Program-made: the position numbers and the translations under genes | Notes under the pieces: model-generated | Database searches by the model: none | What the model saw: only the letters and a program-made list of their open reading frames with translations | What the model was told of the DNA's origin: nothing | Assembly (NCBI GenBank): GCA_963662435.1 | Contig: OY759598.1 | Span: 712,507-776,506, forward strand | Reading direction: 5' to 3' | Source: Dehalococcoidia bacterium | GTDB taxonomy: Bacteria > Chloroflexota > Dehalococcoidia > Lucifugimonadales > VXLM01 | DNA: 64,000 nucleotides | Part shown: piece by piece, positions 24,131 through 58,107 of the stretch | Layout of the letters: each line of letters begins with the position of its first letter | How positions within the stretch are numbered: the stretch's first letter is position 1

Positions 24131-24471
24131 CGTTATCCCTCGGAAGGGACTACACGGGCGTAGTGACTTTGAGGGGACTACACCGGTGTAGTCCCCTGCA
24201 GGGGATTACGACCGACGGTCTGATCTGATGTCATGGTTCGACGAGGCGGCCCAGCTTGGCCCAGCGTTTGTGCATCGAATGGCTGTCAAGGGGCTGTACA
24301 GGGAAATGGAACTTCGGGTAGAAGCGGACTTATTGGGCCATTTAGCTTCGGTAAGTTGCAGGTTGCACGGTGTAGAGGCCCCAAAAGCGAACACTTTATG
24401 TCAGGGGCTGGTTGCAGGGCAAAGCGCCTCAAGTGTGCAAGGCTGGGCCGCCCCCTATTGGAGGTGTTGAG
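24131..24471 (+). repeat. Structured leader, copy A
   Basis: Hairpin ATCCCT cgga AGGGA; ACTAC..GTAGT; a perfect 24-bp palindrome GGGGACTACACCGGTGTAGTCCCC (24172-24195) overlapping CCCCTGCAGGGG (24192-24203); GGGATTAC; GCTGTACAGGGAAATGG; AAGTTGCAGGTTGCA; GAACACTTTATGTCAGGGGCTGGTTGC. Confidence 0.65.
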
Positions 24472-24981: not shown

Positions 24982-25184
24982 GTCGGACGCCGTAGGCGAA
25001 TCCCCAAGAGCATCTCTCTGTAGCAGGGCGGCCGGGTTCCATCCCAGGGTTGACGCAGATGTGGCGGACAACTGGTTGTGTAGGAAAAGCCCCTACAGGA
25101 GTCGCCGGCATGGCCACGGTAGGTCTCCCACCTGTGCAGGAAGCGTGGAATCTACCAACAGATTGCACAGGGAGGTGGAAGCAA

Positions 25185-25925
25185 ATGAAACGGAATGGAT
25201 CAGACATCGAAGGCAGCATAGCCTTTGAAAGCACACACGAACGGCAGCTCATGACGCTGCTGCAAGAGATGGTGCGGGAGAAGGGCCGTGGTGGCGCGGC
25301 GCGGGTGCTGGAGATCGACCCCCGCACGGTGGCCGCGTGCATGAAGAAGGGGAGGCTGTCCTGGCGGGTGAGGGAGGCGTTGGAGAGGGCAATTCAGTAT
25401 GGGGCGGGCTCCGCCGCCGCCGAACAGCGGGAGCGCAACGACCAGCTGGAGGACCGAATCAACAGATTGGAGGAGAAACTTCAAACCGGCATCGAAGAGC
25501 TGGCAGGGGAACTCAGGAGACGTCAGAGGATACATGCCCGGGACCTTCATCTGGTCCAAGCGCGAGTGGCGATCCTGACGCAAAGCCTTCTGGGTTCGGG
25601 GACGGAAACTCCCACAGGCGATGAGAGTGGAGTTTCCCCGCCGACGAGACGTGGTCCACTCTGGTTGCTCAAGGGGCCCGGCCCGGTCGACATGACAGAC
25701 CTGGTCTTCAAGTGGCGGCAGGCGCTGGCCGAGTACCTGGCCGCCGAGGAGCGGCTGTGCGAGGGCATGGATAAGAACATGAAGGCGATCCTTCGTGATG
25801 ACAAGAAGGCTGAAGGTCCCGTCGAGCCTCGCGCCCCCAGAGCGGCTCTGCGGTCGACCCTGCGGTCGAAACGGAATCGCACCCGATCCGGGACGGCCGA
25901 GAGCGCTCAGACCGGGATAGGATAA
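25185..25925 (+). CDS. HTH plus coiled-coil protein (246 aa), family member
   Basis: GGAGGTGG upstream of ATG 25185. LMTLLQEMVREKGRGGAARVLEIDPRTVAACMKKGRLSWRVREALERAIQYG, then a coiled coil. Confidence 0.65.
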   Translation: MKRNGSDIEGSIAFESTHERQLMTLLQEMVREKGRGGAARVLEIDPRTVAACMKKGRLSWRVREALERAIQYGAGSAAAEQRERNDQLEDRINRLEEKLQTGIEELAGELRRRQRIHARDLHLVQARVAILTQSLLGSGTETPTGDESGVSPPTRRGPLWLLKGPGPVDMTDLVFKWRQALAEYLAAEERLCEGMDKNMKAILRDDKKAEGPVEPRAPRAALRSTLRSKRNRTRSGTAESAQTGIG

Positions 25926-26094
25926 TCACGAAGTCGCGGGCAGGGACGGCTCAATGGCTGTCATCAACGGCTGAGCCGGGCGTCCGGTTCACCCCCACTG
26001 GGTCTCGTCCCGTCAAGTATCCGTGTTAAATGTCAAGTTCTAGTTCTGCCTTGAAACGGACTGATCAGGCGGTAAGTAGCACCCAGGGCCTTCC

Positions 26095-26657: not shown

Positions 26658-28550
26658 CTAGGGTTTTGGCATGCGGTAGCCGACCCGGGGCTCGGTGAAG
26701 ATGTATTGGGGATCGTTGGCGTCGTCTCCGAGCTTATGACGCAGCCTAGCAACGACGACGCGCACGAAGTGTCCCTCATCTCTTGTGTAGTCCGCTCCCC
26801 AGACTCTTTGCAGTATCTGCTCATGGGTCAGCACACGCCCGGCGTTGGTGGACAACTCGAAGAGCACTTTGTATTCGGTCGCGGTTAGTTGCACGGGACT
26901 GTTCCCAACCGTCACATGGCGATTCGAATAGTCGATTGTCAGGTCTCCGGCCCGGTAGGGTTCTCGTTCTTCATCCACCGCGCTGCCCGTCCCCTTTCGC
27001 AGGGCCGTTTCGATTCTCGCTAACAACTCCGTCGGGGAGAAGGGCTTGGTGATGTAGTCGGATGCTCCCATTTTGAGCGCGCGCTCTACGCTCTCTTCCC
27101 CACCGCTGCCGGACAGGAAGATCACAGGGACCTCGGATATCTCGCGGAGACTCTTCAGAAGATCGAACCCGCTGGTGCCGGGCAGCTTCACGTCGAGCAG
27201 CACGAGGTGAGGCCGCTCCATCTCGACGAGGTGGAGCATCTCATTGGGGTTGCCGGTGGCAATGGGGAGATACCCGGCGTCTGTGAGGGTGTTCCGAATG
27301 TACCGCAGTATCTGGGGATCGTCGTCTATCGAGAGGACTCGGGTCTGCTCGCCCGCGCTCGTCATCCTGATTCCGGGGGTGGACGAATCTGGCAACTCCT
27401 CTTCCGCATCGGGAGCGATGGGAATCGTGAAGGTGAACCGCGCTCCGGTCCCTTCGCCTCGACTCTCGACCCAGATGCGGCCTCCGTGCGCCTCGACGAT
27501 TCCCTTGCAGATGGCGAGGCCCAAGCCGTGTCCCTCAACGTTCTCTTGGACTTCCTTGAGACCGACCCTTGAGAACTTCCTGAAGAGCCGGGGCAGTTGG
27601 TCTGCCGTCACTCCCTCCCCTTCGTCCATCACGGAGACGGCCAGGTAGGGGTCCTGCAGCGACGCGGTCACCCTGATGGGCGAGGTCGCGGGAGAATACT
27701 TCGACGCGTTGGAGAGAAGGTTGTTCAAGACCTGCGTCACTCGCTGCGAATCCGCCCAGATCGGTGGAAGATCGGGCGGCAGATCGACCTGAACGGTTTG
27801 TCGCGACCCGCCCTGCAGGAACGAGTCCACCGTCTCTTCGACCAGGTCAATCACGTCCGTCGGCTTGAGGTCCACCTCCAGCGCTCCGGCCTCTATCCTG
27901 GTCACGTCCAGAAGGTTGCTCACGAGATCGCTCAGCAGATCGGCCTGCTGGTCGATGGTGTGGAAGAAGGAGCGAGTTTCCGTGGGGCTGAAGGGCCTTG
28001 TGGTGCTCAGCACGGTTGCGGCGGAGCCCTTGATGGTAGTCAGCGGTCCTCGAAGCTCGTGGCTCACCATGGCGAGGAAATCATTGCGCATGCGCTCCAT
28101 CTCCTCCAGGGGCGTCATGTCCTGCATCACGGCGACGGCGGAAACGATGCTCCCGTCATCCGAGTGGATCGGCGTCGCATTGACGAGGATGGTCAGCGTC
28201 CGCCCGTCCGGGCGATTCAGCAGGATCTCTTCCGCCCGCACGACCTCTCCGCGACCGAGGGCCCTCGCCAGCGGACGTTCCTCGTCTTCATACTGCTTGC
28301 CGTCCGTCCGCCGGTAGATCGCCAGCTCGTGATAGCGCACGAGCGTGGAACCCGGTTCCGGGGACATGCCGAGGATGCGCTCGGCCTCCTTGTTGACCGA
28401 TGCGAAGGTCCTCGTCGCGGCGTCGACAACCATGACACCCACGGGCGACGACTCCACCAGCGCCGCCAGTCGACGCCTCTCCGCCTCCGCGCTGAGGAGG
28501 CGCTTCCGCAGATCTTTGATCTCCCGTCTGAGCTCGTCGGCTTCCTGCAA
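26658..28550 (-). CDS. Cytoplasmic PAS histidine kinase fused to a complete OmpR-type response regulator (REC plus winged helix)
   Basis: PAS; H-box MVSHELRGPL; HATPase motifs NLLSNASKY, DEGEGV, GHGLGLAICKGIVEAHGG; REC motifs RVLSIDDD..LVLLDVKLPG..ITKPF; Trans_reg_C motifs LTATEYKVLFEL..EPRVGYRM. No TM segment. The only in-frame start is TTG 28550, because an upstream ATG is followed by TAA (see finding). Confidence 0.8.
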   Translation of the reverse strand: MQEADELRREIKDLRKRLLSAEAERRRLAALVESSPVGVMVVDAATRTFASVNKEAERILGMSPEPGSTLVRYHELAIYRRTDGKQYEDEERPLARALGRGEVVRAEEILLNRPDGRTLTILVNATPIHSDDGSIVSAVAVMQDMTPLEEMERMRNDFLAMVSHELRGPLTTIKGSAATVLSTTRPFSPTETRSFFHTIDQQADLLSDLVSNLLDVTRIEAGALEVDLKPTDVIDLVEETVDSFLQGGSRQTVQVDLPPDLPPIWADSQRVTQVLNNLLSNASKYSPATSPIRVTASLQDPYLAVSVMDEGEGVTADQLPRLFRKFSRVGLKEVQENVEGHGLGLAICKGIVEAHGGRIWVESRGEGTGARFTFTIPIAPDAEEELPDSSTPGIRMTSAGEQTRVLSIDDDPQILRYIRNTLTDAGYLPIATGNPNEMLHLVEMERPHLVLLDVKLPGTSGFDLLKSLREISEVPVIFLSGSGGEESVERALKMGASDYITKPFSPTELLARIETALRKGTGSAVDEEREPYRAGDLTIDYSNRHVTVGNSPVQLTATEYKVLFELSTNAGRVLTHEQILQRVWGADYTRDEGHFVRVVVARLRHKLGDDANDPQYIFTEPRVGYRMPKP

Positions 28551-28980
28551 AGTTACGCCATACCGTTCGTTTCGTTATGCGCCTCTACCGGGACACGACG
28601 GTCGGGATTGTACCACGAACCTTTACATCACAATCATGTGAGGAAGTCCTCAAATTCGATCTCCAGCGCCTGCATCGTGGAAATTTATACAAAACTTTGC
28701 AGTTTTTTGATAGAAACGGGGCAAATTTTTGCGTCCATGTTACATCGACCCCTTATCGTTAAGAGATATCACCCGATGAGAGGAGGCAAGAGATGGAGAG
28801 ACTGCACATACCGCGATGCGCCTGTCGAGGCCCCTGCGGGACGGCGACAGGGGGAGGCCCTCATTCCCGTCCGGCAGGGGCGCATCGACCGACGGAGGTG
28901 AAGACATCAAAAGGAGACGAGATTGAACATCCGAGACCCCCCGAGGGGTAACACGAAGAAAGAAGAAAGAGGAGAAGAAA

Positions 28981-29574
28981 ATGAAGATGCACAAGACCAT
29001 ACTGACGCTGCTGGCGGTGACGCTGGCAATCATCGGAACGACGGCGACGGTGGTACAGGCGGAGGGGCCGGCGGACAGCACTAGCTTCACTAACGTAATG
29101 GACGCCGAGACGACGACGCTGTACAACGAACTCTCCTCGCCTGCGCAAGGCTTGATGGAGCAGATTTGGGAACAGATTGAGGCGACGGCTCCCCAGGAAG
29201 CCTTTGGGCCTCAGGTAGCTCACTACGTTGCTGCGCTGCGTCAGGATCAGGAGGATATAGAGAACGCAGACCCCGCCGTCACTGCGGACTCAAACGGTAA
29301 CTGCACATCTGTAACAATGCACTCAAGTTTAACGAGCGGGTACTCGTCTGCAGTGACTGGATCGTTCGTGTCGTGCGCCGCTCTCAGCGCTAGCATTACG
29401 ATACAAGCGATTCCCGGCGCTGCGGACAGTGACGTGTGTAACAACTGCACACTGGCATTTGCGTATATCGCTGAGCCGCAAGACTACAATTTCTGGTCTG
29501 GACAGAGTGTGCATGAGTGGCAGTATCCCACCGATCTAGAAGTGCTATATCCAGACTGTTGGTGCGGCTACTAG
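28981..29574 (+). CDS. Secreted Cys-rich protein (197 aa)
   Basis: AGGAG upstream. Signal peptide MKMHKTILTLLAVTLAIIGTTATVVQA-EG. Eight Cys in the C-terminal half, ending CWCGY. Confidence 0.6.
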   Translation: MKMHKTILTLLAVTLAIIGTTATVVQAEGPADSTSFTNVMDAETTTLYNELSSPAQGLMEQIWEQIEATAPQEAFGPQVAHYVAALRQDQEDIENADPAVTADSNGNCTSVTMHSSLTSGYSSAVTGSFVSCAALSASITIQAIPGAADSDVCNNCTLAFAYIAEPQDYNFWSGQSVHEWQYPTDLEVLYPDCWCGY

Positions 29575-29667
29575 TAGCGTTCTCCGGCGTCGCACTGTGG
29601 CGACGCCGGAGAATGACTCCTGATACGACTTAAGATTCAGCCATAAGGTGACGTAGGAGATCAAGCC

Positions 29668-30750
29668 ATGACACGACACAAGGTCTTGGAGTTTGTGAGA
29701 ACAATAGTCTGGGGCAGCGTTACTTGTGGTTGCCTGCTATTGGTTGCGATTGGGTGCACAATCAACGGACCGGAGCCAGAGCCGACTAAGTCGGCTTCAG
29801 GAGAGCCAAAGTTGCCCCAAAGTACGCCTGGCATGATGACCGTAATCCCCGGAGAGTTGGAGTCGCTGCTTTCCGGAGACGTTTTGACCAAGTACAGAAA
29901 CCTGCCCGAGGAGTATCGCGAGGCTTTGCGAGCGTATCTCGCATTCGGTGTGTCGCGGGAGTTGGTTCCAACATTGGTGGAGCAGAAGATGGCCCAATGG
30001 CCGCCTTCACCCCCACCCTTGGAGGAATTGCTTGGAAGCGACAGAATTCAGGCCATAGAAAAGATCATTGAGACGGAGATTCGCGAGCCGGTTTCTAAAA
30101 CGTTGCCCTATGCGTCGTTTCTCCTCAACTACTACATCTACGTGCTCAACACTCAAGATACCGTTGCCGGCCAGCGCCAAGCTCTCACAGCACTAGCAGA
30201 CTCGCGATACGGTACGACGAATCGGGCGAAACGCGAGGCCGAGGCATTGGCAGACCACCAGTCCGGCGCGAACCAGACTGAAGTCGAGGCATTAGCAGAC
30301 CCACAACATGGAGCCACGAATCAGGCGGATCAGGTTCCAATGCCGAAACCAGAGTTGGGAAGTATCATCGCCCCCATCGCTCTGTCGCGGCTCAAAGAAT
30401 TGGGACCAAACTTCCGAAGCGTGGTCGAGTCCAAAGACGGCAAATGGCTTCCGCAAGACCCCAGCAGCATAGCCTTCTACCTTCTACACTCCGAAATCGG
30501 ATTGCTGAAGGCTGCCCCCGGCTTGGAGTTGCCTCCCATAGAACCGAGCCTAACCCAGGAGCAGTTGTCCGAGTTCAGGGCAATTTCTCCAACTGTCCAA
30601 GAGCGAGTGGAACAGTCCTATCACGCAACGGTATTCGCAAATATGATCGGTTCGTCCCTGTATGCGACTTCGCCAGCACTGTCATTACCGTCAACGGAGT
30701 CTCTTTCTGACATCGCGTCCAGTGTGTTGAGCGCAGGGAAGAAATTTTAA
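29668..30750 (+). CDS. Lipoprotein with degenerate ~30-35-aa helical repeats
   Basis: AGGAG upstream. Lipobox LLVAIGC. Repeats of the type LSGDVLTKYRNLPEEYREALRAYL and LTQEQLSEFRAISPTVQERVEQSY. Confidence 0.6.
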   Translation: MTRHKVLEFVRTIVWGSVTCGCLLLVAIGCTINGPEPEPTKSASGEPKLPQSTPGMMTVIPGELESLLSGDVLTKYRNLPEEYREALRAYLAFGVSRELVPTLVEQKMAQWPPSPPPLEELLGSDRIQAIEKIIETEIREPVSKTLPYASFLLNYYIYVLNTQDTVAGQRQALTALADSRYGTTNRAKREAEALADHQSGANQTEVEALADPQHGATNQADQVPMPKPELGSIIAPIALSRLKELGPNFRSVVESKDGKWLPQDPSSIAFYLLHSEIGLLKAAPGLELPPIEPSLTQEQLSEFRAISPTVQERVEQSYHATVFANMIGSSLYATSPALSLPSTESLSDIASSVLSAGKKF

Positions 30751-30822
30751 AAATGTAACTGATATGCACTTATGAGCGCTCGGAACCGCCGGAGTCCCAG
30801 GGAGGCCTGGAAGGGTCTCCAA

Positions 30823-30842
30823 AATCACACGATCGTGTGATT
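30823..30842. promoter_or_regulatory. Perfect 20-bp palindrome AATCACACGATCGTGTGATT (operator candidate)
   Basis: Exact inverted repeat 80 nt upstream of the lipoprotein ATG at 30922. An identical copy lies at 36398-36417. Confidence 0.6.
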
Positions 30843-30921
30843 ACAGGCACCGGGAAGTCCGCGTAGCCTGGGATTACAGGGAAGCAGGTTACGATGCACA
30901 CAGAGCAAGGAGGTGACGGAA

Positions 30922-31737
30922 ATGCAACGGATAACGAACATACGGATTTTCTTCATCGTCGCAGTGGTCGTGGTTGCTATGGCGTGTGGAACGTCCTCTC
31001 CTTCAGCGCAGCCCTCCTCTGTGACCAACGCGGTCCCAGCCGAGACGCGAGCCACTCCCGAACCGACTCCTTCGTCTACCCGGACTTCTACTCCCACACC
31101 AATTACGACGGAGATACCGGCGACTCCCGAGCCGTCCGCCTCAATACCGACCCCTGACAGCACCCAACCCGAAACCACGTCAAGCCCCGCGGCCTCCAGC
31201 CATGTGGTCGCTAGTTCCTTAGATGAACTCGTTGACTTTTCGACCCATGTGGTGACGGGCCGCTACACCAACCGGAAGACTGAGATTCACATCCCCAACA
31301 CCGGGCCGGACGGCCAACCGGACAATAGTATCGTCGGAGTCGGGGCCGTCTACACCATAGAGGTCGAAAGCTACCTGAAGGGAGACGGCGGGCGCGAGAT
31401 TCAAGTCGTTCAGATTGAACAGTTTCGGACTCAAAGCCCCGGAGAGGCGGCGAGAGTCTCTGATTTGGAGAACGCAGGCTTCCCGTTTGAACGAGATGGA
31501 CGGTATCTGCTGTTTCTGATGCCGCAGAGACAGGTCGGTAGTATGCCTGATCTCTTCTTGGGGGTAGCACAGCCATACAGGTTCAACCTAACCGCAGGCG
31601 AGGCGAAGGTGGATGGTCCCTTAGGCGATTTGTTCAGAGGTTTGCATGAAGGCACGGAGGCTATATTCCCCGACACCTCCGAGCAATCGCTGGTGGATCA
31701 GGTTCAGGCCATTGTTGCACAAACCCCCGGTCAGTAG
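30922..31737 (+). CDS. Lipoprotein with the conserved 5' cassette and a Pro/Thr linker (271 aa)
   Basis: AAGGAGG then ATG 30922. MQRITNIRIFFIVAVVVVAMAC-GTSSP. The C-terminal domain resembles the 33713-34333 product. Confidence 0.65.
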   Translation: MQRITNIRIFFIVAVVVVAMACGTSSPSAQPSSVTNAVPAETRATPEPTPSSTRTSTPTPITTEIPATPEPSASIPTPDSTQPETTSSPAASSHVVASSLDELVDFSTHVVTGRYTNRKTEIHIPNTGPDGQPDNSIVGVGAVYTIEVESYLKGDGGREIQVVQIEQFRTQSPGEAARVSDLENAGFPFERDGRYLLFLMPQRQVGSMPDLFLGVAQPYRFNLTAGEAKVDGPLGDLFRGLHEGTEAIFPDTSEQSLVDQVQAIVAQTPGQ

Positions 31738-31746
31738 AGGCGAACC

Positions 31747-32408
31747 ATGCAGCATCCTCAAGATGTGTTGCTCTCCCTGCTAATTGCTTCATGGCTTTTG
31801 GTCTCTGGGATCATGTTTGCTTGCAGCGGCGATCCATCCGATCCATGGACGCCGCTGCCGGCCGCGACTGTGGAACCGCTTCCGACGATACCCGCTCTGC
31901 CCGCGCGGACCCCGCGCGTGACTCCTACAGCACCGGTCGCCACACCCACGCCTCCTTCCATCGCACCCGCTCGCTCCCTGCCGCTTCCCAGCCTCCACGC
32001 TCGGCATGAGGGCCTGTATTACCCGGGGGACAGAACGGGAATCTGCTGGCCGATAACGTCGGAGCCGGGCGCTAAGTGTCATCTCATGACCGGTCTGTAC
32101 GCGGGGTGGGAGGGGTTCGACGAGGTTCCCGCGATTCGGCTGCGGGGCGACGAGGAGTTCCGCGTCATCCTGTCGAGCAGCAACACCCCGAAGGATTTGT
32201 TGAAGGTGACGGTCTCAGTGTGTTGGAGGAATCCCCGCGTCTACAGCGCGGGGATTTGCTGTTCGGGGACGACATCCCTTCGCGCGACTTCATAGATTAT
32301 GTATCGCTAGACCTGCCGCCCGGCATCTACTACATGCTGATCCACGCGATCTGGAAAGAAGACCGGGGACACATCTCCTACGGCTTCAAGGTCGAGATGG
32401 TCGAATAG
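31747..32408 (+). pseudogene. Lipoprotein gene with a frameshift near a GTGTGT tract
   Basis: Lipobox GIMFAC. Frame a reads ..EFRVILSSSNTPKDLLKVTVS up to about 32217. The protein-like sequence then continues in the -1 frame (LEESPRLQRGDLLFGDDIPSRDFIDYVSLDLPPGIYYMLIHAIWKEDRGHISYGFKVEMVE, stop 32408). Confidence 0.55.
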
Positions 32409-32538
32409 CCTCGGGCCGTCACGTGAAAACCAGACCTAGGTTCATAGTCTGTAATAGGAAATCGGACATGAACAGGCAACGGCGGCTCCGGGCGCGAGAG
32501 GGCTCGGAACCGCCGGAGTCCTCAGGGAGGTGGCGGAA

Positions 32539-32667
32539 ATGAAGCGGATAATGGACATACGGATTATCTTCGTCGTTATCGTGCTCGTGGTCGCTATGGC
32601 CTGTGGATCGTCCTCTCCTGCGGTGCAGCCCTCGCCGGTGACTAACGCGGTCTCGGCAGAAAACTAG
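32539..32667 (+). pseudogene. Remnant of the lipoprotein 5' cassette (signal peptide only, 42 codons)
   Basis: MKRIMDIRIIFVVIVLVVAMACGSSSPAVQPSPVTNAVSAEN-stop. Homology to the 34935 and 36497 genes ends at about 32686, where the inverted kinase remnant begins. Confidence 0.6.
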
Positions 32668-32687
32668 ACAACCCCCGAAACCCTGCC

Positions 32688-32785
32688 GCCAGTCGACGCT
32701 TCTCCGCCTCCGCGCTGAGGAGGCGCTTCCGCAGCGATTCGATCTCCCGTCTGAGCTCCTCGGCTTCCTGCAAAGTTACTGCCAT
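32688..32785 (-). pseudogene. Remnant of the first ~30 codons of the kinase/regulator fusion gene
   Basis: MAVTLQEAEELRREIESLRKRLLSAEAEKRRLAA compared with MQEADELRREIKDLRKRLLSAEAERRRLAA at 28550. The upstream 300 bp is also duplicated. Confidence 0.7.
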
Positions 32786-33088
32786 ACCGTCCGTTTCGTG
32801 GTGCCCCTCTACCCGGATACGACGGTCGGGATTGTACCACGAACCTTGAACGTCACAATCACATGATGGAGTCCCAAACTTCGATCTCCAGCGCCTGCAT
32901 CGTGGAAATTTATACAAAACTCTGCGGTTTTTTGATGGAAACGGGGCAAGTTTTTACGTCCATTTGATATCAGGCCTGTATCGTGAGGTGCATAACCCGA
33001 TGAGAGGAGGCGAGACGGTGAAGACGAAGGAGATTGAGGATTGAACATCCGAGGCCCCTCTGGGGGTACACAAGAAGGAGAAAGAACA

Positions 33089-33664
33089 ATGAAGTCCACA
33101 AGAGAATCGACTTTGGGAAGGGGATTCGTGGCCGCTATTGTTTCTGCGGCGTTGACTCTCGTAGTCCTGTGGGCCACAACTGGACCGGTCAACGCTTATT
33201 CGCTCCTTGGATGCGAATACGACAATGACTCAATTAGCCCAATCTCCTACCGGTTCTTCTCGGTCAATAGTGCCTATGTAACTGCATTCAGGAATGCAGA
33301 CATTGCTTGGGGCCAAACGTCCGCACCAGGGTACTTTGAAGAACACCCTTGGTCCCTTGATCCTGAGATCAACGTCGTTGACGGTGAGTACTCGGGTTCT
33401 TGGTGGGCTCAGGTAGTCTACACATGCGATAGCGACGGCACATACGATGGAAACGAGGTCGAAGCTCAATTCGACACCGGTGACATGGCGAGCCTTAGCG
33501 CCAATGAGAAGAAACTGGTTGCAGAACATGAGCTCGGTCACGCCTATGGGCTGGGCCACGTCTACAGTGGTTGCCACGTGATGAGACAGGGCACCTACAA
33601 GTTCACCTGTAGTGGCGCGCTTCCGTCCAGCGACGACGTTGCAGGAGTCGATGCAATCTACTAG
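33089..33664 (+). CDS. Small secreted metzincin-type zinc metalloprotease
   Basis: AAGGAGA upstream of ATG 33089. Signal peptide ..ALTLVVLWATTGPVNA. Motif HELGHAYGLGH (HExxHxxGxxH). Confidence 0.75.
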   Translation: MKSTRESTLGRGFVAAIVSAALTLVVLWATTGPVNAYSLLGCEYDNDSISPISYRFFSVNSAYVTAFRNADIAWGQTSAPGYFEEHPWSLDPEINVVDGEYSGSWWAQVVYTCDSDGTYDGNEVEAQFDTGDMASLSANEKKLVAEHELGHAYGLGHVYSGCHVMRQGTYKFTCSGALPSSDDVAGVDAIY

Positions 33665-33712
33665 GAAGAGGAATTCTGAATCTAAGCACGGTTCTCAGCA
33701 AGGAGAGTTGTC

Positions 33713-34333
33713 ATGCAGACATTGATTGCAAATCGTAAGGGGATGGGAGTCACGACCGCATTTGCGGTGTTAGCCTCCGTGCTGGTTGCGACAACGTGGT
33801 TCCTACTACAAGGAGGCGAGAAGGATAGACCTTCTTTTGGCGCCACCCCAGATATGCAAGTGTACTCCTCGATAGGAGAGTTGTCGAAGGCTTCCGACCT
33901 AGTGGTCTTGGGTACAATACGAGGAGTCGAGGCTCGCGAGACTGACTATGGAACGAGCGACCCCAACGAAAAGATTGACCGGATAGGCATTCCAACAGTG
34001 TTCTATGAGGTTGCAGTGACGGAAACTCTGCGTGGTGAGGCAAGTGGCAACATCATTGTAGGCGCGCCAGACGTAGACGAGATTTCGATTAAGGAGGCAA
34101 CAGCTCTACGAAGCGGTCAGCAGGTCCTGCTTTTTCTTAAGAGACAGACGACTGAAGACGCACCTGGCATCACAGCTTATACCGACTTTTACGTGACGGT
34201 GAGCCTGGACAACGGTGTTTTCAATCGTCTGAGTGACGATTCGGTCGAGCCGCGCATGTCTCAAGCCTTTGAAGCAGCAATCTTCAGTCTGGACGAGGTT
34301 AGGGAGCAGGCGCGACGAACATTTGTTCCGTGA
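33713..34333 (+). CDS. Secreted protein (206 aa), related to the C-terminal domain of the 30922-31737 lipoprotein
   Basis: AAGGAGAG upstream, with an N-terminal hydrophobic segment. Shared pattern: ..ELSKASDLVVLGTI..VFYEVAVTETLRGE..QQVLLFL.. here, versus ..ELVDFSTHVVTGRY..VYTIEVESYLKGD..RYLLFL.. in the lipoprotein. Confidence 0.55.
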   Translation: MQTLIANRKGMGVTTAFAVLASVLVATTWFLLQGGEKDRPSFGATPDMQVYSSIGELSKASDLVVLGTIRGVEARETDYGTSDPNEKIDRIGIPTVFYEVAVTETLRGEASGNIIVGAPDVDEISIKEATALRSGQQVLLFLKRQTTEDAPGITAYTDFYVTVSLDNGVFNRLSDDSVEPRMSQAFEAAIFSLDEVREQARRTFVP

Positions 34334-34382
34334 GGTGGTTGAGTTCGCGCGGCGAAGCGCAGCCGACCAAAGGAGCAACCTT

Positions 34383-34793
34383 ATGACTAACGGTTCCGGT
34401 TCAAGAGGATTCTTGTCCGGCCGTGTGGGACCCGTAATTATCGCCGTTGTGGTGACCGGGGTGGTGGTTTTCGTGGCTTGTTTCATGGTTTGGCACAACC
34501 TCGGTGGGGGTGCTTGGCGCAGCGAAGTGAGAGTAATGGAAGCGTACTTACTTGACCCGGACAGGCCGGACAGACTCACACTCGATGTCGCCTCCTGCAA
34601 CGGGGCCCCGCGCGTGTCGTTTCGAAAGACGGACGTCGACGTGCAAGTTAAGGTGATTGCCTTCTCCACTCCCTTCCATGGTGGCGGTGATTGCGATGAC
34701 GACGTTGATGTCTACCTTCAAGAGCCACTGGGAGACCGGGTCGTCGTTGACATGCACACCGGGCAAGTAGTGAGCGTGAGGACAGACAGGTGA
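34383..34793 (+). CDS. Membrane-anchored small protein (136 aa)
   Basis: AAGGAGC upstream of ATG 34383. TM segment VGPVIIAVVVTGVVVFVACFMVW. Confidence 0.5.
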   Translation: MTNGSGSRGFLSGRVGPVIIAVVVTGVVVFVACFMVWHNLGGGAWRSEVRVMEAYLLDPDRPDRLTLDVASCNGAPRVSFRKTDVDVQVKVIAFSTPFHGGGDCDDDVDVYLQEPLGDRVVVDMHTGQVVSVRTDR

Positions 34794-34934
34794 ATGCCTC
34801 GAATATCTGGGATACCCAAAGACCCATATGATAGGCGGAGAAGGAGAAACCACCAGTGTCCCAGGTAAGGACCGCGTAACTTGGGATTACAAGGAAGCGG
34901 GCGATGGTACAAACACCACAGGGAGGTGACGGAA

Positions 34935-36362
34935 ATGCAACGAATAACGAACATACGGTTTGTCTTCATCGTTGTCGTGCTCGTGGTCGTGGCGGCCTGT
35001 GGGACGTCCTCTCCTCCGGTGCAACCCTCGCCGGTGACTAACGCGGTCTCGGCAGAGGCGCAACCAACCCCCGAACCGCCCGCAGAGCCTGAGTTCGAAG
35101 GGACTCTTGAGGGCGACGACCTCGCCAAGTTCCAGGACCTGCCCTCGGAGTTCCAAGACGCCCTGCGGCAGGAGTTCGAGGATGCGGGCGAGGCTAAAGC
35201 GCTCGGTTATCTACGCGGCCTCCCTGACGAGACACCTACGATCTCGGAGATGTTGGATCCTGCGGCTCTTGGCTGGTTCGGCGTGCTACAGCCGTATGAG
35301 CAGCGCTTCCTTCTGCTGGAGGGGTATCCCGAGGTCTACCGAAGGAACGTGCAAGCGAGCCGAGAATTCAAGGGGGTCAAGTTCTCGTACAAGCACATGG
35401 TGGGAACCGTGTTCGACAATCGCGGGGTCAAGCTGCCGCCCATCGAAGAGGCGCTTTCGGCGGACGCGCAGGCGAAGCTCGACTCCATGGACGCGCTCCT
35501 GTCGCGGGCATTCAGGCTTGCGTGGGCCGAAGCAAAGCCCCGCCTGACGGAGGTGGACGATTCGATCAAGCGCGTGGAGGGCGGTCTGCTGACGGCGCCC
35601 AGGGAGATGCCGTCCCTGGCGGAACTGGGCCTTTCCGATGCGAGCATCGCGCAATTCCGCGCGCTTCCAGCCGAGATGCGAGACTGGCTTTGGAAGCAGG
35701 TGGCGCACGAACTGGTCACAAGGGGAAGCCTGAGCACCTACTCTGTCATGCGGGATGAGTACATCCAGGTACTGTCCGAACCCGGTGCCCTGGCGACCTT
35801 CAACCAAGGGATCATGCCGGTGCCAGAATACTCGCACGTGGGAACGACGTTCGCGTGCCTGGGAGGGCCTACCACGTGGCCGGATTCGGTGGCGGCGAGG
35901 ATGCCTGAGAGCTTTGGCGACCGGCCTGCTGTCTACCTTCCGCCATTCGAGGACGCGTTTTCTTCCGAGGCATTGGGCCAGCTGAACGAGCTGGACTCGA
36001 AGCTCCGGGCGGCCTTCGAAGACCGATGGAAGTGGTCCGGACCCTTCTCGCCCCAAAAGGCCTACTGCGAGATATCCAAGCTCGAACGCGGCATCCTCTA
36101 CATCCCCACGACGACCGCGCCCACCGCCGAATCCCTGCTGTCGCGGGAAGGGACAGCCCGCTACGCGACACTCTCCGATGAGTCCCGACAGCAGCTCGAG
36201 CGCGACATTGCGGATTCCATCATTATCGGGTGGGTCCTCGACCCTCGCGGGGGAGGACCCGTGATGTCCTTCAATACCCCTCACGATGAATTCCTGGACG
36301 CGCTTGGGGCCGAGTTAGAGGATCGGATCAAGATATGGGCTGGTAACCCCGCAGATTCGTAG
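34935..36362 (+). CDS. Lipoprotein with the conserved 5' cassette and degenerate helical repeats (475 aa)
   Basis: GGGAGG then ATG 34935. MQRITNIRFVFIVVVLVVVAAC-GTSSPPVQPSPVTNA. Repeats include LAKFQDLPSEFQDALRQEF, IAQFRALPAEMRDWLWKQV and ARYATLSDESRQQLERDI. Confidence 0.65.
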   Translation: MQRITNIRFVFIVVVLVVVAACGTSSPPVQPSPVTNAVSAEAQPTPEPPAEPEFEGTLEGDDLAKFQDLPSEFQDALRQEFEDAGEAKALGYLRGLPDETPTISEMLDPAALGWFGVLQPYEQRFLLLEGYPEVYRRNVQASREFKGVKFSYKHMVGTVFDNRGVKLPPIEEALSADAQAKLDSMDALLSRAFRLAWAEAKPRLTEVDDSIKRVEGGLLTAPREMPSLAELGLSDASIAQFRALPAEMRDWLWKQVAHELVTRGSLSTYSVMRDEYIQVLSEPGALATFNQGIMPVPEYSHVGTTFACLGGPTTWPDSVAARMPESFGDRPAVYLPPFEDAFSSEALGQLNELDSKLRAAFEDRWKWSGPFSPQKAYCEISKLERGILYIPTTTAPTAESLLSREGTARYATLSDESRQQLERDIADSIIIGWVLDPRGGGPVMSFNTPHDEFLDALGAELEDRIKIWAGNPADS

Positions 36363-36397
36363 TGGTTGCGACGTGAAGCGGCACGGAAGGCCGGGAG

Positions 36398-36417
36398 AAT
36401 CACACGATCGTGTGATT
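36398..36417. promoter_or_regulatory. Perfect 20-bp palindrome AATCACACGATCGTGTGATT, copy 2
   Basis: Identical to 30823-30842, at the same distance (80 nt) from ATG 36497. Confidence 0.6.
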
Positions 36418-36496
36418 ACAGGCAACGGGAAGGCCGCGTAACCTGGGGTTACAGGGAAGCAGGCGATGGTACAGGCAGCGCAAGGAGGTGACGGAA

Positions 36497-37724
36497 ATGC
36501 AACGAATAACGAACATACGGTTTGTCTTCATCGTTGCCGTGCTCGTGGTCGCTATGGCCTGTGGGACGTCCTCTCCTCCGATACAGCCCTCGCCGGTGAC
36601 CAACGCGACCCAAGCGAACACGCGGGTATCGCCCGACCCCACACCTACGCCAATCCCCACTGAGATTCCAGCGACTCCCGAGCCCGAGTTCAAGGCGACG
36701 CTGGAAGGAGAAGCGTTGGCGCAGTATGAATGGCTGTCGGAGGAACATATTCTGGACATGGAGGGAATGGCGAGGTTCTTGGGGACGAATATGGTGACGG
36801 AGTGGCTGGCCGTCCTATCGGGGCCGGCGTCGGACCGCTTCGCGTCGGGATTGGAGGGAGACGACCGCGAACGGTATGACAGCCTCTCGCGGTTGGAACG
36901 ATATACCTTCGAGCTCATTGCGCTCATAGAACAGGATCTGGCGATGGAGTGGCTCTCGGTCGGGCCCGGCCGGCTAGACCAGGAAGGTGAGCGGGTTGGA
37001 CAGGACCATAGAGGGGCAAGGACTCCGGCAAAGGCGTTTGCGGCTGACATTGCGCAGACCGACTCAGGGCTTCCAGGAGTGCCGATAATCGAGACAGAAG
37101 CCCTCGTCCAATACGCGCGGCTGGACTCCGAGGGACGCGCGGCATTCGAGTTCCTCGTGAAGGTGGTGGGCCTGGAGGCGGCAGAAGAGCAGTTGCTCCC
37201 CCTCAGGGAATGGAACGACTCGTACTTCCACCCGCCCCCGATCTTCGCGGCGGCCCTGCCGACCCTAGAGAGCGGCCTTTCTCCCGACGAGGCGGCGAAG
37301 CTCGGGGCGCTCGACCAGCGCATCCGAGATCCGTTCGTGGAGAACTGGGAGGAAGGACTGCGTATAAGTGCCCCGGACCCTTCCGAGGCACTGGCCTTCA
37401 CGGACCCGAAGGGGTACGTCGCCGAACAGACGGAGAAACACGCTAAGAGGCTCAAGCAAAGACTGATGGCGATCCCTGCCGAGCTTCCACACATCAAGGA
37501 CCTGGTCTCTGCCGAGGGTGTGGCGGAGTACGACCGGCTACCCCAACCTTAGGGAGCAGTTCTGGAAAGAGGTTGGAGTCGTCTACTCAAGTGGAATGAC
37601 GGTAGGGAGTGAAGGCTTCCCTGCCATGACCGACGGCGAGATCAAGGACCTGTTCGGCCCCATCCTCTCGTCCTTCATGCGGCGTCAGGAAATGAACCCC
37701 GAGTACCAAAGCAAGGCACCGTGA
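36497..37724 (+). pseudogene. Lipoprotein with the conserved 5' cassette; frame broken at a CCCC tract (about 37537-37540)
   Basis: MQRITNIRFVFIVAVLVVAMAC-GTSSPPIQPSPVTNA. The ORF stops at ..VAEYDRLPQP-stop (37552), but removing one C gives ..EYDRLPNLREQFWKEVGVVYSSG.., continuing the family repeat motif to 37724. Confidence 0.55.
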
Positions 37725-37851
37725 ACGTTTTTGGAACAAGGAAGCCACCGCCCTACTGATTCGCGAAGGTTTCATTTGTTCTTGCCGACAATTCTGCGCA
37801 AGTGCGCGGACGTCAGGGCGTACTCTATAACCCAACGGAGCCGGCCCAGAC

Positions 37852-38064
37852 ATGAAAGGAATCACAATGGCTAGAGAATGGGGCGATCAAGACGAGGTAA
37901 TAATTGTCGGCATCGACATAGACTTTCTGAATCTTGTCTATCTCGTGTTCAAGATAGGGTTCGCCATTACCCTAGTTTGGCTTGTGTTAGTCATACCGAT
38001 AACATTAGTCATCTCAATCTTTAGCCTCTTCACTGCGAATACTGGGGTTAGGTTCGGCTGGTAA
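37852..38064 (+). CDS. Small membrane protein (70 aa)
   Basis: Two hydrophobic segments (LVFKIGFAITLVWLVLVIPITLVISIFSLF). Low GC. Confidence 0.4.
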   Translation: MKGITMAREWGDQDEVIIVGIDIDFLNLVYLVFKIGFAITLVWLVLVIPITLVISIFSLFTANTGVRFGW

Positions 38065-38107
38065 CGCCGATAAGCTCAGCGCAGCACGGCAGACAATCAC
38101 CAGCACT

Positions 38108-38740
38108 ATGCCGCTTGAATTCGGCGAGGCGAAGACGCCAGACGAGTTCCGAAGCCGGTGGGACGATGAAGAGCCGTTCTACGGCGGCGCTGCAATCGAC
38201 CGGAGCGATTGGTGAAGTCCCAAGTATGACTACTGCACGACCGGGTATGGCGTGACGACCTTCAGCGGTACGGAGGACCTTCTTACGGCGCTTCACTGCT
38301 GCTACGGGAATAACTATTACATGCCGGACGGAGATCGGCATGTCGGTACCGTATCGGACCCGGTAGTCTGTACACTCGATGCCGCCAATCTAATCGGGCA
38401 GGACTACAGCCCGCGCGTCTACGCCGGGACGTGGAACAGCTCTCATTCTCTGGGCGTCGCCGGGTTGGTAATCCTGGCTGACGGCTAGTACGTCTACATG
38501 TCGGGCTCTCACTCCGGCGAACACCTGACACGGCTGGACTCTACTTTCCGATACAATGCCGGATGCATCCCCTAGGCAATGGGACCGGGTTTCTGGACGA
38601 CTGACCAGCAGGGCGATGGCTCGGCTGGGGACGGCGAAAGTGGAGACTCAGTGTTACGCTATGTTTCCGGCTCAGCCGTCAGGGGCGCCGGGATGATGGG
38701 GGGCGGAGATACGGTGAACCCCAGTGCGCCATGAGAGGGA
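38108..38740 (+). pseudogene. Decayed S1 (streptogrisin/alpha-lytic-like) serine protease
   Basis: FYGGAAIDRSDW-stop-SPKYDYCTTGYGVT..LLTALHCC (His-box-like), later ..GDGESGDSVLRYVSGSAVRGAGMMGGG (GDSGG-like) in another frame. In-frame stops and frame changes are present. Confidence 0.4.
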
Positions 38741-39676: not shown

Positions 39677-41049
39677 GTCACCATCCTTTTCGGCACTGGG
39701 AACGCACGGTTGAGTGGCGGCGCACCTAGAGAGTTAGTCGGAGTCCTTTCGCTGAAGATACCGCCACTTCGCAGGCGGTTTGACCTTCAACACCGTCTGG
39801 GCGATCTCCTCCGGCGAGGCGTCGATCGTCGGGGGCATCGAGCGCGGTGGGCGTCCGACGAGGTTCTTATTTCGCTTCATGCCAAGTCTCCCTTGCCGGC
39901 ATTATAACAGCCTGAAGTTACTTCTCTTCGAACTCCTCTATTCGCGGGTCGGGGGGAACAAAGTACCACCCGATCAGCACGAAAGGTCCGCACAGCGGGG
40001 CTTACGCCAACCCTATGAAGAACCACTTCCATGGGCTTTGGTAGCGGCCCTTGGCTCTACTTGCCAACACCCCTCCCACGATGGCCCACCCAGAATATCC
40101 ATAGAACGATGAATCTCATGAAACCGGGATCGTCCAGCATGACATCGCCTCCATGTTGCCTTCTTGTGGTGAGTCCAGCGCGGGGAGCATAGCAAATGCT
40201 AAGGGGTTTTGTGTCGCGTTCTACACAAGAGTGTATTACAGGCTCGGCGGACTCACCACGTCCATGTCTTTCGGAGTGTACCGAGGAGTGTCCTTTGCCT
40301 CCTTGAGGACGCTCCATGTGTCGGAACTTGTGATGAGTCCCTACACTCTTCGCCTAAGGTAGGCTCCTATGAACACTGTCTTGGTTGCTGCGCGGCCACG
40401 TCGAGGTGTCTAAGCGGTCAGATGACTGGAAACCTGCCAATCATGCTGGGGATTGCACCTGTATAGCTTGCTCACAAAGACAGCTCTCGGAGTGGAAACT
40501 ATTAAAGGAACCACCGCTAGAACGAACTACTCGCTTGAAACGACCGAAAAGACGGCGTCGGTGGAGGTGGAGGAGTCGGGCGCGATGGCGGAGTCGCCCC
40601 AGTTGTAGGCCCGGTCTGACCTGGCCGTGGGGCCGGACCACTCCATCTCGCTGTTAGGGCCGGCCCTGGCCTCGGCCTGAAGCTTCGAGAGGAACCACGT
40701 GACACCGTCTGCGTGCTTCGTCTGCCTCGCCCACGTCTCGGTGCGGTGTCCCACGTGACGCCTGCGGCCCTGTCTGTCGGTGGTGAGGGCGGTGCTCCAG
40801 ATGCCCTGCGTCGTCGGGAGCTGGGCGCGGTCACGGTGGGTGATGGTGGCGTCGAAGCGGCCCCTGCGGTAGATATCCACGCAGGACCGGAGCCCGTCGA
40901 TGTCGGGGGAGAGTGAGGCGGCCCTTGCCCCCGCCGTCCATCCTGTGAATGAGCGGCGTCAACCACTCCCTAGAAGGTATACTGGACCCTCCGCTCATAC
41001 TTCGACGGGCCTCAGCATGAGCGTCCCCTACTGCAGTTCCGGTCAAGAA

Positions 41050-41610
41050 TTATGTTCTTGGCTGGGCCGATTTGCTTGCGCATCGCCGACGCGCATGGGA
41101 TAGCGTTGCTAACATCCATACGAGACATATACCTAGTATCGCCATCGCAATTCGGTACGTCCAATCCCAAACAGTTGATGTCACGGGCGAACCTTCAGCC
41201 AAGGAGAACATGGCAAGAATCACTACTGCCACCAGCAAGACCAACATGAAAACGCCGATGGCTACATAGAAGCTACCCCTGTGCCAACTGCACAAATTCT
41301 TAGGCTCAATCGGCTCGTAACTTGAAGACCCGGCTGGTGCGACATTCGTCAAAGGCCTCAATAGTCTATTCAAGAGCGTATCTAGAACGTAGCCTGCAAT
41401 CTGGACAACCTTGTCGATTCTTCTAATCAACCACGCAAATAGCACCAATGTACCGACTACCTCAAGTACGGCAAGCCTATCTTCCGACGATTGCCCAGAC
41501 ATCCCAAGTGCCATCACCAAGAATAAGACCACGGCGAATACTTCCAAGGCGTGCACCATGAACATCAGGGGACTAAGTCCGTCTGTTACGTCTCGCTCTT
41601 TGTTTGCCAT
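41050..41610 (-). CDS. Four-TM membrane protein in a low-GC insert
   Basis: AGGAAGGA upstream of ATG 41610. Sequence MANKERDV..MFMVHALEVFAVVLFLVMALGM.., with four hydrophobic segments. GC is visibly lower than in the flanks. Confidence 0.5.
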   Translation of the reverse strand: MANKERDVTDGLSPLMFMVHALEVFAVVLFLVMALGMSGQSSEDRLAVLEVVGTLVLFAWLIRRIDKVVQIAGYVLDTLLNRLLRPLTNVAPAGSSSYEPIEPKNLCSWHRGSFYVAIGVFMLVLLVAVVILAMFSLAEGSPVTSTVWDWTYRIAMAILGICLVWMLATLSHARRRCASKSAQPRT

Positions 41611-41639
41611 ATGACCATCCTTCCTATTCTGTGAAAGTT

Positions 41640-42060
41640 GGTTCCAAACAATACCCGCCATCTCCAATTTCGTCCCACCGCGTCCATCCTGCGGATGAGA
41701 ATCGTCAGCCACTCCCTGGACATGGGTTAGGCCCTCACGAAGTCCGAGGGCGTGTCGAATCCGAGAACCTCAGTGGCCTTGCGGATTCCATGAGCCGTCA
41801 GGTGGTACTTGTGGCTCGACGGCAGGTGGGCCGTCCCGTGGCTCACCCTCCCGACGATGCCCTGTCCAAGCAGGTTGCTCAGGGCAAGGTGGACGGTCGT
41901 GTGCGGCTCGCCGAGGATGAGCGCCAACTCCGTCGAATCGACGAAGGGCGTCCGGCTGAAGGCGTCCGGCTGAGGGCGTCGAGCAACAGTCCATCGGAGG
42001 GGGAATTATATACTTGCCTCCCACATGATGCTGTGATTGCATATGGCATTAAAGTCATTA
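41640..42060 (-). pseudogene. Winged-helix (MarR-like) gene disrupted by a 14-nt tandem duplication and a stop codon
   Basis: GGCGTCCGGCTGAA/GGCGTCCGGCTGAG at 41947-41974 is a 14-nt tandem duplication. Removing one copy gives ..GLLLDALSRTPFVDSTELALILGEPHTTVHLALSNLLGQGIVGRV..YHLTAHGIRKATEVLG. There is a stop at 41727-41729, after which homology continues (PMSREWLTILIRRMDAVG). Confidence 0.5.
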
Positions 42061-42483: not shown

Positions 42484-43964
42484 TTAGCGGATGGCGGGGG
42501 AGGTTTGGAGTGATGGGGAGTGAAGCGGAGCGCCGCTGAAGATAGCGCAGAGCCGATCCACCACGGATTGGTCGTCGCCATTGCGCTCCAACGTCCTGAT
42601 TACGCTGGTGAAAGCCGAGAACACATCGGCCCCCTTCTCGTTCTTCGAGCAGTGTGACACCTTCCGCGCGATCACCGCCCCACGAAACTCTCGCTCAGCC
42701 CGGTTGTTGGTCGGCTCAATGCTCGGATCGTCCAGGAAGGGAAGCGCAGCAGGCTGCCCCGGTCATCGTGCCAGCACAACTCGTTCTGCAGCCGGTAGTT
42801 GTCCGCATCCGCAATCGGACGGTCGCGGAGATGATAGCTCATCTGGCGCTTCAACCGCTCGGCCTGCACACCAAAGTCGACAGCCTCACCTCGATGATAT
42901 GCCTCCCGCAACTCCATCGCCTCTCGCAGAAGGCCGCTCAAACGCTTGCCGAAGCTGCGGCCTCTCCCCGTCTTGCTCTTGACCACCTCGCTGATCGAGC
43001 GTAGCACGTGCGCCAGGCACTTCTGCTGTCTCACCTCGGACAGCGCCTGAGCATCGTAACTGCGACCCCGGTCGGTCACCATCACCCCTGTGTAGTCCGC
43101 AGGAACCATCTCGCGCACCTCTTCGTTCCGGTGACGAGCGCGAACCTGATACACCGTCGCCTCTTCTGTCTCGAACGCCATCAGAAACGCCGGCTCGCCT
43201 CCAACTCGCCAGCCCGTGTCGTCGGTGTGGACGACCGGACTCGCTCGCACCGATGTCCGCAGCGTACGGTAGGCGTCACCCACCGCATCGGCACTAAGGC
43301 GCAGCGCGTCCTGGCTGATCGCCCTCTGACTCACTCTCACCCCGGCCAGCGCCCTGAGAACGGCAGGAACCTTCCGTACCGGAACGCCCACCCCATAGTG
43401 GAGCACGTGGGCCGCCGCCATCAGCCGCTTCCCCACTCGGTGGGCGCTGGCCCCGTACTGGTCCTGCGCTATGTCGGGATGCCGCCCTCGCACAGCGTTG
43501 CCGCACGACCGGCACCGGCATACCTGCACACGATACGCCGTTATCTGGGGACGTGGAACCGGCAGAAGGTCGGTCACGTAGGCAAGCCGCACTCCCTCAT
43601 GTTCGAGGACGCCTCCACATCCGGGGCAGGTGTCCCAGGACACTGGCACGTCTACAACCGGCTCGGTGATCTCTTCGGCAGACGGCGGCTTGCGGTAGCT
43701 GAACATCCCCATACCCGGCTTGCGGCCAGGACGCTTGGGCTTGCTGCTGCGCTTGCCCTTGGAGAACGGCGCCGCCTGTCGCTTTCCCGCTCGCTTGGCC
43801 TCGGCGAGTTCCTTATGCAACTCTTCGTTGGCTGCCGTCAACCGCGCGTTCTGCTCTTGAAGCCGCGTCACCAACGCGATAAGCTGATCCCGTTCAGACG
43901 GGGACAAGCTTGTGGAACTGCACACATAGCCAAAGTCTAAACCAGCACCCAGCGCTCCCCGCAA
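42484..43964 (-). mobile_element. IS66-family transposase gene with a frameshift near 42760 (probably inactive)
   Basis: Leucine-zipper N-terminus; CPGCGG..CRCRSCG zinc motif; DDE region ..VVHTDDTGWRV..VMVTDRGRSY..QKCLAHVLR. The expected ..LLRF(L)DDPSIEPTNNRAEREFRGAVIARKVSHCSKNEKGA.. requires a 1-nt frame change to join ORFs 42672-43964 and 42484-42675. Confidence 0.75.
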
Positions 43965-48543: not shown

Positions 48544-48590
48544 GTCGTACCCATGTGCTGATGCCAGTGTGAGAGGTGGGAGAGCGGAGC

Positions 48591-50386: not shown

Positions 50387-50399
50387 CCGCGAAGTTGAC

Positions 50400-58097: not shown

Positions 58098-58107
58098 GAG
58101 AAGACGT

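Follow-up and report, generated by a model that had tools for sequence, protein, structure and literature searches.

The window analysed here is a 64,000-nucleotide stretch of a Dehalococcoidia bacterium, bases 712507 to 776506 of a single-contig, 4.15-Mb genome with 59.8% G+C. A search with an RpoB fragment gave metagenome bins of Dehalococcoidia and Chloroflexota as the best named relatives, none above 66% identity. Between positions 30775 and 37724 the window carries an array of predicted lipoprotein genes that share a 5' cassette and differ in their mature domains. A first-pass annotation, made from the letters of the window alone, had described four copies of this cassette, one of them truncated, with a common N-terminal consensus, an identical 20-bp palindrome at equal distance from two of the start codons, and unrelated or only distantly related sequence downstream. 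Each of these points was confirmed. The start codons lie at 30922, 32539, 34935, and 36497 (copies 1 to 4), and the encoded N-termini, MQRITNIRIFFIVAVVVVAMACGTSSPSAQPSSVTNA, MKRIMDIRIIFVVIVLVVAMACGSSSPAVQPSPVTNA, MQRITNIRFVFIVVVLVVVAACGTSSPPVQPSPVTNA, and MQRITNIRFVFIVAVLVVAMACGTSSPPIQPSPVTNA, all match the proposed consensus. Copies 1 and 4 are preceded by the perfect palindrome, in each case 99 nucleotides 5' of the ATG, and copy 2 ends after 42 codons and a stop. A repeat finder recovered the cassette as two families, designated D1 (30823-31086, 34836-35099, and 36398-36661) and D2 (30903-31062, 32520-32679, 34916-35075, and 36478-36637), so that the repeated unit measures roughly 160 to 260 nucleotides; the D1 and D2 copies are 76-89% identical in DNA. 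Table 1 lists the features of the array.

Table 1. Features of the lipoprotein array and its flank, in window coordinates.
Feature	Position	Strand	Description
Gene for hybrid kinase/regulator of PAS-HisKA-HATPase-REC-OmpR type	26658..28550	-	Identified by Pfam; flanks the lipoprotein array
Putative operator palindrome AATCACACGATCGTGTGATT, copy 1	30823..30842		Perfect inverted repeat; 18-20-mer conserved genus-wide before genes
Predicted core promoter, cassette copy 1	30840..30869	+	-35-like ATTACA 30840-30845, 18-nucleotide spacer, -10-like TAGCCT 30864-30869
Predicted lipoprotein gene A1, 271 residues	30922..31737	+	Signal peptide 30922-30987, lipobox Cys22, linker, Pro/Thr-rich tether, 271-type mature domain
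Cassette copy 2, remnant	32498..32667	+	Upstream piece 32498-32521, Shine-Dalgarno sequence, 42-codon open reading frame 32539-32667; from alignment and repeat D11
Duplicated hybrid-kinase 5' end and divergent intergenic region	32685..33068		Copy of 28462-28950, 87% identity; D3, D4, D5, D8, D12
Partial upstream region of cassette copy 3	34868..34934	+	Homology from about -68; -10-like TAACTT (34877-34882), leader, and Shine-Dalgarno sequence kept
Predicted lipoprotein gene A3, 475 residues	34935..36362	+	All-alpha repeat mature domain
Putative operator palindrome AATCACACGATCGTGTGATT, copy 2, before cassette copy 4	36398..36417		Perfect inverted repeat
Predicted core promoter, cassette copy 4	36415..36444	+	ATTACA 36415-36420, TAACCT 36439-36444; geometry as at other sites
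Predicted lipoprotein gene A4, 400-residue type, frameshifted	36497..37724	+	Open reading frame 36497-37552 ends early; remainder in another frame to 37724

The four copies are in different states of repair. In copy 2 about 105 nucleotides, comprising palindrome, promoter, and leader, have been deleted between the microhomologies AGGGAGG and AAGGAGG, and the 24 nucleotides upstream (32498-32521) still match 30774-30797; the undeleted form, palindrome included, is found in a related metagenome contig, L175. Copy 3 has no palindrome and no -35 element, and its homology to the other copies starts at the crossover zone seen in comparison with L175, described below. Its gene, A3, has paralogs of 91-92% identity in both other lipoprotein clusters of the genome. 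The frameshift in A4 is a 2-nucleotide deletion relative to an intact 400-residue paralog at genome position 3126468, and adjoins a CCCC run near 37537-37545. A further lipoprotein gene at 31747-32408, which begins MQHPQDVLL...FACSGDPSDP, occupies two reading frames, 31747-32295 and 32076-32408; the break is close to a GTGTGT at 32218. Genome-wide, nine copies of the cassette occur in three clusters, one in the window, one at 1438.6-1440.4 kb, and one at 3123.5-3126.5 kb on the other strand. Each cluster adjoins a copy or paralog of the PAS-HisKA-HATPase-REC-OmpR hybrid gene. Five of the nine copies have the full promoter, and every full copy has its own Shine-Dalgarno sequence and ATG.

All nine copies encode M(K/Q)(R/G)IxxIR, followed by 12 to 14 hydrophobic residues and a lipobox that reads A-M-A-C or V-A-A-C, whose Cys (C22) never varies, either among the copies or in 20 aligned homologs. 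The genome encodes both Lgt (PF01790, 165 bits) and signal peptidase II, LspA (PF01252, 121 bits), each above cut-off. The coding part of the cassette is a predicted type II (lipoprotein) signal peptide with a disordered tether, and the products would be lipidated and may be exposed at the surface. Beyond the tether the proteins diverge sharply. With the first 45 residues removed, BLASTP aligned the 475-residue and 400-residue types at 27-29% identity over about 110 residues, and found no match to the 271-residue type among the others. Comparison of the C-terminal domain of A1 with the product of 33713-34333 was likewise not significant (E 0.72), so any similarity at the level of motifs is unproven. 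Pfam found no domain in any of the mature domains, and their homologs are nameless and also without a Pfam domain. An AlphaFold2 model of the 475-residue protein (mean predicted local distance difference test score 82.7, predicted template modelling score 0.73) has residues 1-47 disordered and the remainder folded as an all-alpha repeat, for which a fold search of the PDB returned nothing with an E-value below 0.9. A related-locus search with the 475-residue protein found none, and no contig encoding the exact window protein is on record; the relatives discussed below came from genome searches and searches for homologous proteins.

The 20-bp palindrome is not confined to the cassette. Its 16-nucleotide core, even allowing three mismatches, has just 0.32 matches in shuffles of the window. 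The genome contains seven copies of the 20-mer, six perfect and one with a single mismatch, and two of the seven precede genes that lack the cassette: those at genome positions 1226480 and 3278190 stand before genes for a 76-residue single-pass membrane protein and for a 203-residue protein with DUF697 and SHOCT domains, respectively. No other member of the inferred regulon is as widely conserved as these two genes. Among 16 genomes of the genus, the pattern ATCACACGATCGTGTGAT, with at most one mismatch, is present in 12, two to nine times each; the reversed control pattern occurs in none of the 16. A thirteenth genome has a palindrome with two mismatches before a cassette lipoprotein gene, and the most divergent genome of the genus retains just the promoter-proximal half, before its ortholog of the 203-residue protein. 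Outside the genus, 147 genomes representing 87 genera of the same order had no copy of the palindrome, and in the papers searched the string matched only an unrelated primer.

All 57 sites retrieved point toward a gene; AAAA flanks them on the side away from it and TAC(A)G on the side facing it. The central GATC of the dyad is nearly invariant, and the distal flanking base is variable. The genes downstream recur between species at characteristic distances: the 203-residue DUF697 and SHOCT protein at 73 nucleotides, the single-pass membrane protein of 75-78 residues at 85-120, and the cassette lipoproteins at 98-100, or at about 207-211 where the leader is longer. Others encode a second type of lipoprotein (73-76 or 200-203 nucleotides), a 60-residue membrane protein with two helices, and a 196-residue protein. 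Because the genes that recur downstream encode envelope proteins, we take the palindrome to be the operator of a small regulon. The comparisons support its description as a genus-wide promoter element, with a putative role as operator for envelope proteins.

The spacing of the predicted promoter leads in the same direction. Of 55 unique sites, 53 have a TAnnnT hexamer that begins 21-22 nucleotides past the 20-mer, and the sequence of the spacer differs between gene groups; before the gene for the 203-residue protein the hexamer is a perfect TATAAT in some species. Where the genes are unrelated, the sites in front of them have in common the palindrome, the flanking AAAA and TAC, and the distance to the -10, and nothing else. 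The conserved TAC flank and the last three bases of the palindrome would form the -35-like ATTACA, which thus overlaps the right arm of the palindrome, and with an 18-nucleotide spacer the dyad is therefore predicted to be centered near -43.5. This geometry resembles that of class II activator sites, among them FNR and CRP sites at -41.5 and the lux and tra boxes of LuxR and TraR, which are 18-20-bp dyads near -42.5. The points of likeness are a perfect dyad of 18-20 bp over a weak -35, a fixed distance to the -10, and the position of the predicted center. The central GATC also resembles the centers of lux and tra boxes, a likeness offered as a lead only. A repressor that occludes the -35 would be equally compatible with the sequence, and our preference for an activator is slight. 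A site of the CRP/FNR type itself was considered and rejected, since the half-sites, TCACA and TGTGA on either side of CGATCG, are everted relative to the CRP consensus TGTGA-N6-TCACA; the alternative consensus compared was TTGAT-N4-ATCAA.

The leader that would be transcribed, about 45 nucleotides, is conserved in its Shine-Dalgarno sequence, AAGGAGGTGA. A structured, riboswitch-like leader RNA was rejected: RNAalifold gave a consensus energy of 0.0 across 16 leaders, with no conserved fold, and Rfam had no match over the leader or over the relatives with a longer one. Over the scanned stretch 28000-38500 Rfam gave a single match, to CcsR1, at chance level (E 0.4; 19.9 bits, gathering score 65.3); it lies at 32474-32545 on the minus strand and overlaps the copy 2 remnant. 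The longer leaders, at L156, L157, L158, L159, L163, L164, L168, L172, L173, and L182, have about 110 extra nucleotides between promoter and Shine-Dalgarno sequence, which place the palindrome 200-211 nucleotides 5' of the ATG. This insert, which has no Rfam match, is kept across two lipoprotein groups.

Two consequences had been drawn from the repeats at first pass, common regulation of the copies and recombinational swapping of the mature domains. The first is borne out, at the level of sequence comparison, by the orientation of the palindrome, its fixed spacing to a -10-like box, the recurrence of the genes behind it, and its distribution, 12 of 16 genomes inside the genus against 0 of 147 outside. 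Within the window, however, the palindrome precedes copies 1 and 4 alone. The second consequence is likewise upheld, so far as comparison of sequences can carry it, by breakpoints inside the cassette, by a contig arranged just as a crossover between copies 1 and 3 would leave it, and by a mature domain found behind other N-termini.

The breakpoints are seen between the window and the third cluster. In their mature parts the 475-residue genes A3 (window) and C2 (third cluster) are 94% identical, and the 400-residue genes A4 and C1 are 92% identical. From -19 to +30, ten of ten informative sites group the genes by cluster (A3 with A4, C1 with C2), and from +43 to +137 seven of seven group them crosswise (A3 with C1, A4 with C2). 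No informative site in the cassette follows the mature-domain families, A3 with C2 and A4 with C1. A palindrome-less head with the first type of linker is therefore joined to the 475-residue body in the window and to the 400-residue body in the third cluster. The palindrome-bearing head shows the opposite pairing, with the 400-residue body in the window and the 475-residue body in the third cluster, and the order of the genes is swapped between the two clusters.

Contig L175, whose flanks are 93-94% identical to those of the third cluster, has the kinase gene, genes for proteins of 214 and 358 residues, a palindrome with a 477-residue gene, a palindrome with a truncated 42-residue cassette and kinase remnant, and a palindrome with a 383-residue gene, in that order. 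The head of the 477-residue gene is A1-like through the palindrome and the -35 and -10 boxes and A3-like from the leader on, with the switch in the shared sequence CCGCGTAACCTGGGATTACAGG. An exchange between cassettes 1 and 3 is predicted to delete 4.0 kb and to leave its junction in CCGCGTAAC(C/T)TGGGATTACA, and the arrangement of L175 is that of the window minus the 4.0-kb block between those two cassettes. A third arrangement of the same locus, L182, has five palindromes, each with TAACCT at +22. The mature domain of the A1 type, at 85-88% identity, stands behind at least five other N-termini in other assemblies; among them are the 31747 signal peptide (P0045), another that lacks Cys, and a chimera whose N-terminal segment is of the 400-residue type. 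In all of these cases the genomes or paralogs compared are 88-94% identical, and what such comparisons prove is evolutionary shuffling, not switching within a clone.

We consider it probable that the cassette is a modular head for secreted lipoproteins, belonging to an operator-controlled regulon in one genus of Dehalococcoidia-like Chloroflexota, and that heads and bodies have been exchanged by recombination. The head would begin with a weak sigma-70-type promoter (ATTACA and TAnnnT) whose -35 is overlapped by the dyad operator, continue with an unstructured 5' untranslated region and a strong Shine-Dalgarno sequence, and end with the type II signal peptide and a disordered tether rich in Ser, Pro, and Thr. 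A putative dimeric DNA-binding protein would occupy the operator, somewhat more plausibly as an activator of class II type than as a repressor, and would co-control the lipoproteins and a few small membrane proteins. The heads are long direct repeats, and for this reason homologous recombination and gene conversion among them have repeatedly swapped heads and bodies, inserted or deleted blocks of genes, and left remnants; the outcome is a set of lipoprotein arrays that are hypervariable, next to a hybrid kinase gene that is conserved.

Several observations weigh against this explanation. The operator precedes only two of the four window copies, 1 and 4, and two of the four are pseudogenes. A consensus promoter scan calls none of the cassette promoters, which are too weak for it; the predicted -35 and -10 boxes are assigned by likeness to consensus and by conserved spacing only, and the fixed spacing could in part come from common descent of the promoters instead of functional constraint. 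The lipobox, with Ala at -3 and Met at -2, fits the permissive pattern of PROSITE type, not the canonical L-[AS]-[GA]-C.

The location of the arrays raises the alternative that the flanking PAS-kinase-receiver-OmpR hybrid protein itself binds the palindrome and controls the array, which we regard as unlikely. A copy or paralog of its gene stands beside all three clusters of this genome; orthologs that are at least 84% identical are separated by no more than a few kb from palindrome-bearing lipoprotein genes in G001, G007, G009, G010, G011, and G012, and likewise in L175 and L182; and a 70% ortholog is found beside the array in a seventh genome. A symmetric dimer could present two DNA-binding domains to the dyad. 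However, four genomes with perfect palindromes (G002, G005, G014, and G015) have no ortholog above 64% identity, so that the synteny is not matched by the phylogenetic profile, and the candidate was set aside on that account; no second candidate for the binding protein emerged. Other members of the regulon, the genes for the 203- and 76-residue proteins, are not near such a gene, and the window protein is one of 11 paralogs that this genome encodes. OmpR-family domains, moreover, usually bind direct repeats.

Programmed antigenic or phase variation, in which high-frequency recombination of cassettes within the population would switch the mature domain at the operator-bearing head, is a less likely account still. 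The long direct repeats with breakpoints inside them, the three arrangements of one locus in three related assemblies, and the frequency of remnants and frameshifts would all be expected from it. Yet the array has no promoterless silent cassettes, each full copy possessing its own Shine-Dalgarno sequence and ATG; no recombinase gene lies within 28.5-38 kb; the repeats are direct, with no inverted repeats in the array; and the promoter contains no slippage tracts. The copies differ by 10-25%, and the exchanges are therefore old. The genomes compared, at 88-94% identity, also differ as species or strains do, and not as members of a clone.

A speculative addition to head and body shuffling, which we think very improbable, draws on the central GATC and on a D12-class adenine methyltransferase: methylation-sensitive binding of the regulator might give heritable ON/OFF switching of each lipoprotein gene, after the model of pap and agn43 of E. 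coli. The methyltransferase is encoded in 15 of the 16 genomes of the genus; the observed to expected ratio of GATC in the genome, 0.82, is uninformative on methylation. If true, switching by methylation together with shuffling would make a two-tier system of surface diversity in uncultured Chloroflexota. We also think it very improbable that the palindrome, instead of being a regulator site, serves in recombination or marks a mobile element, as the end of a mobile promoter cassette would, or that it is an RNA hairpin or terminator. In favor of such a role, several homology boundaries coincide with it or fall close by, such as the start of D1 at 30823, and one genomic copy is about 330 nucleotides from an IS5-like transposase gene. 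Against it, the homology of lipoprotein copies runs about 20 nucleotides 5' of the palindrome, across species, and sites before unrelated genes agree in nothing beyond the palindrome itself, its flanks, and the -10 spacing. The palindrome also lies 5' of the predicted transcription start, has no T-run after it, is not called by a terminator scan, and has neither an Rfam match nor a consensus fold.

With that set aside, the modular head under a shared operator can be compared with known systems. The closest analogue is the erp (ospE/F-related, "upstream homology box") family of Borrelia burgdorferi, whose lipoprotein genes have common promoter and operator DNA, a conserved leader and conserved N-terminal residues, and differing mature parts, with all copies co-regulated through the operator (PMC9112904); recombination among the copies has also been reported (reference 107 in that article's list). 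The erp genes belong to another phylum, their OspE/F/Elp products have no sequence relationship to those described here, and no Pfam family matches the mature domains of the window. The erp genes reside on cp32 prophage plasmids, whereas the present arrays are chromosomal and have a kinase gene as neighbor. BpaB, BpuR, and EbfC bind an erp operator of about 145 bp, in contrast to the single 20-bp dyad here, which overlaps the -35 and would be served by a putative regulator. The present system resembles erp in its working, without being a member of that family.

The vsp, vlp, and vsa loci of Mycoplasma are also composed of tandem lipoprotein genes, in which the 5' untranslated region and signal peptide are highly conserved and the mature region varies. 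They switch by site-specific inversion or by slippage in promoter homopolymers, whereas the array in the window has no invertase, no inverted repeats, and no promoter tracts. The lpl clusters of Staphylococcus aureus, which lie in a variable genomic island, encode tandem lipoprotein paralogs whose N-terminal parts are conserved; all have a conserved core domain, DUF576, in common. Here, in contrast, the mature domains fall into several unrelated or distant families, and the common part includes promoter and operator.

The duplicated kinase piece abuts the truncated cassette 2 and precedes a gene for an M10-like peptidase (33089-33664, Pfam Peptidase_M10). The same junction between cassette 2 and kinase piece is present in L175, and is therefore old. 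The soluble, single-polypeptide PAS-kinase-receiver-OmpR architecture of the 11 paralogs in this genome reaches 16 paralogs in a relative. Directly after the gene at 28981-29574 is a G+C-rich hairpin at 29577-29613 (GCGTTCTCCGGCGTCGC...GCGACGCCGGAGAATG), terminator-like, without a T-run. In the wider window, a 1.8-kb segment is duplicated at 24120-25934 and 48578-50395 (93.7% identity), and two parts of 40572-41966, namely 40572-40843 and 41675-41966, recur in at least seven places in the genome at 72-84% identity; they are probably the ends of an insertion sequence or small mobile element. A group II intron reverse transcriptase (6766-8742), an IS66-family transposase (42672-43964), and a DUF499/DUF1156 methylase-ATPase module (53360-62028) show that the window's lipoprotein cluster sits in an island made up of mobile and defence genes. 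Conserved MoxR/DUF58 genes on one side and GT2/SIMPL genes on the other bound the arrays in the chromosome.

Since Borrelia and Mycoplasma already exemplify the principle of a shared head, the surprise in concept is modest. Here the principle occurs in another phylum, with a single 20-bp dyad over the -35 and a chromosomal array. Almost nothing is known of gene regulation and cell-surface biology in uncultured Dehalococcoidia-like Chloroflexota, and a genus-specific operator with a small, conserved envelope regulon offers a handle for finding the regulator. The cassette would also illustrate, in nature, how a promoter, a signal peptide, and a tether can serve together as an exchangeable module. 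Finally, a hypervariable array of predicted lipoproteins, one type with a new all-alpha repeat fold, stands beside a conserved sensor gene, a pattern which suggests that phage, host, or grazers exert diversifying pressure on the surface of these bacteria.

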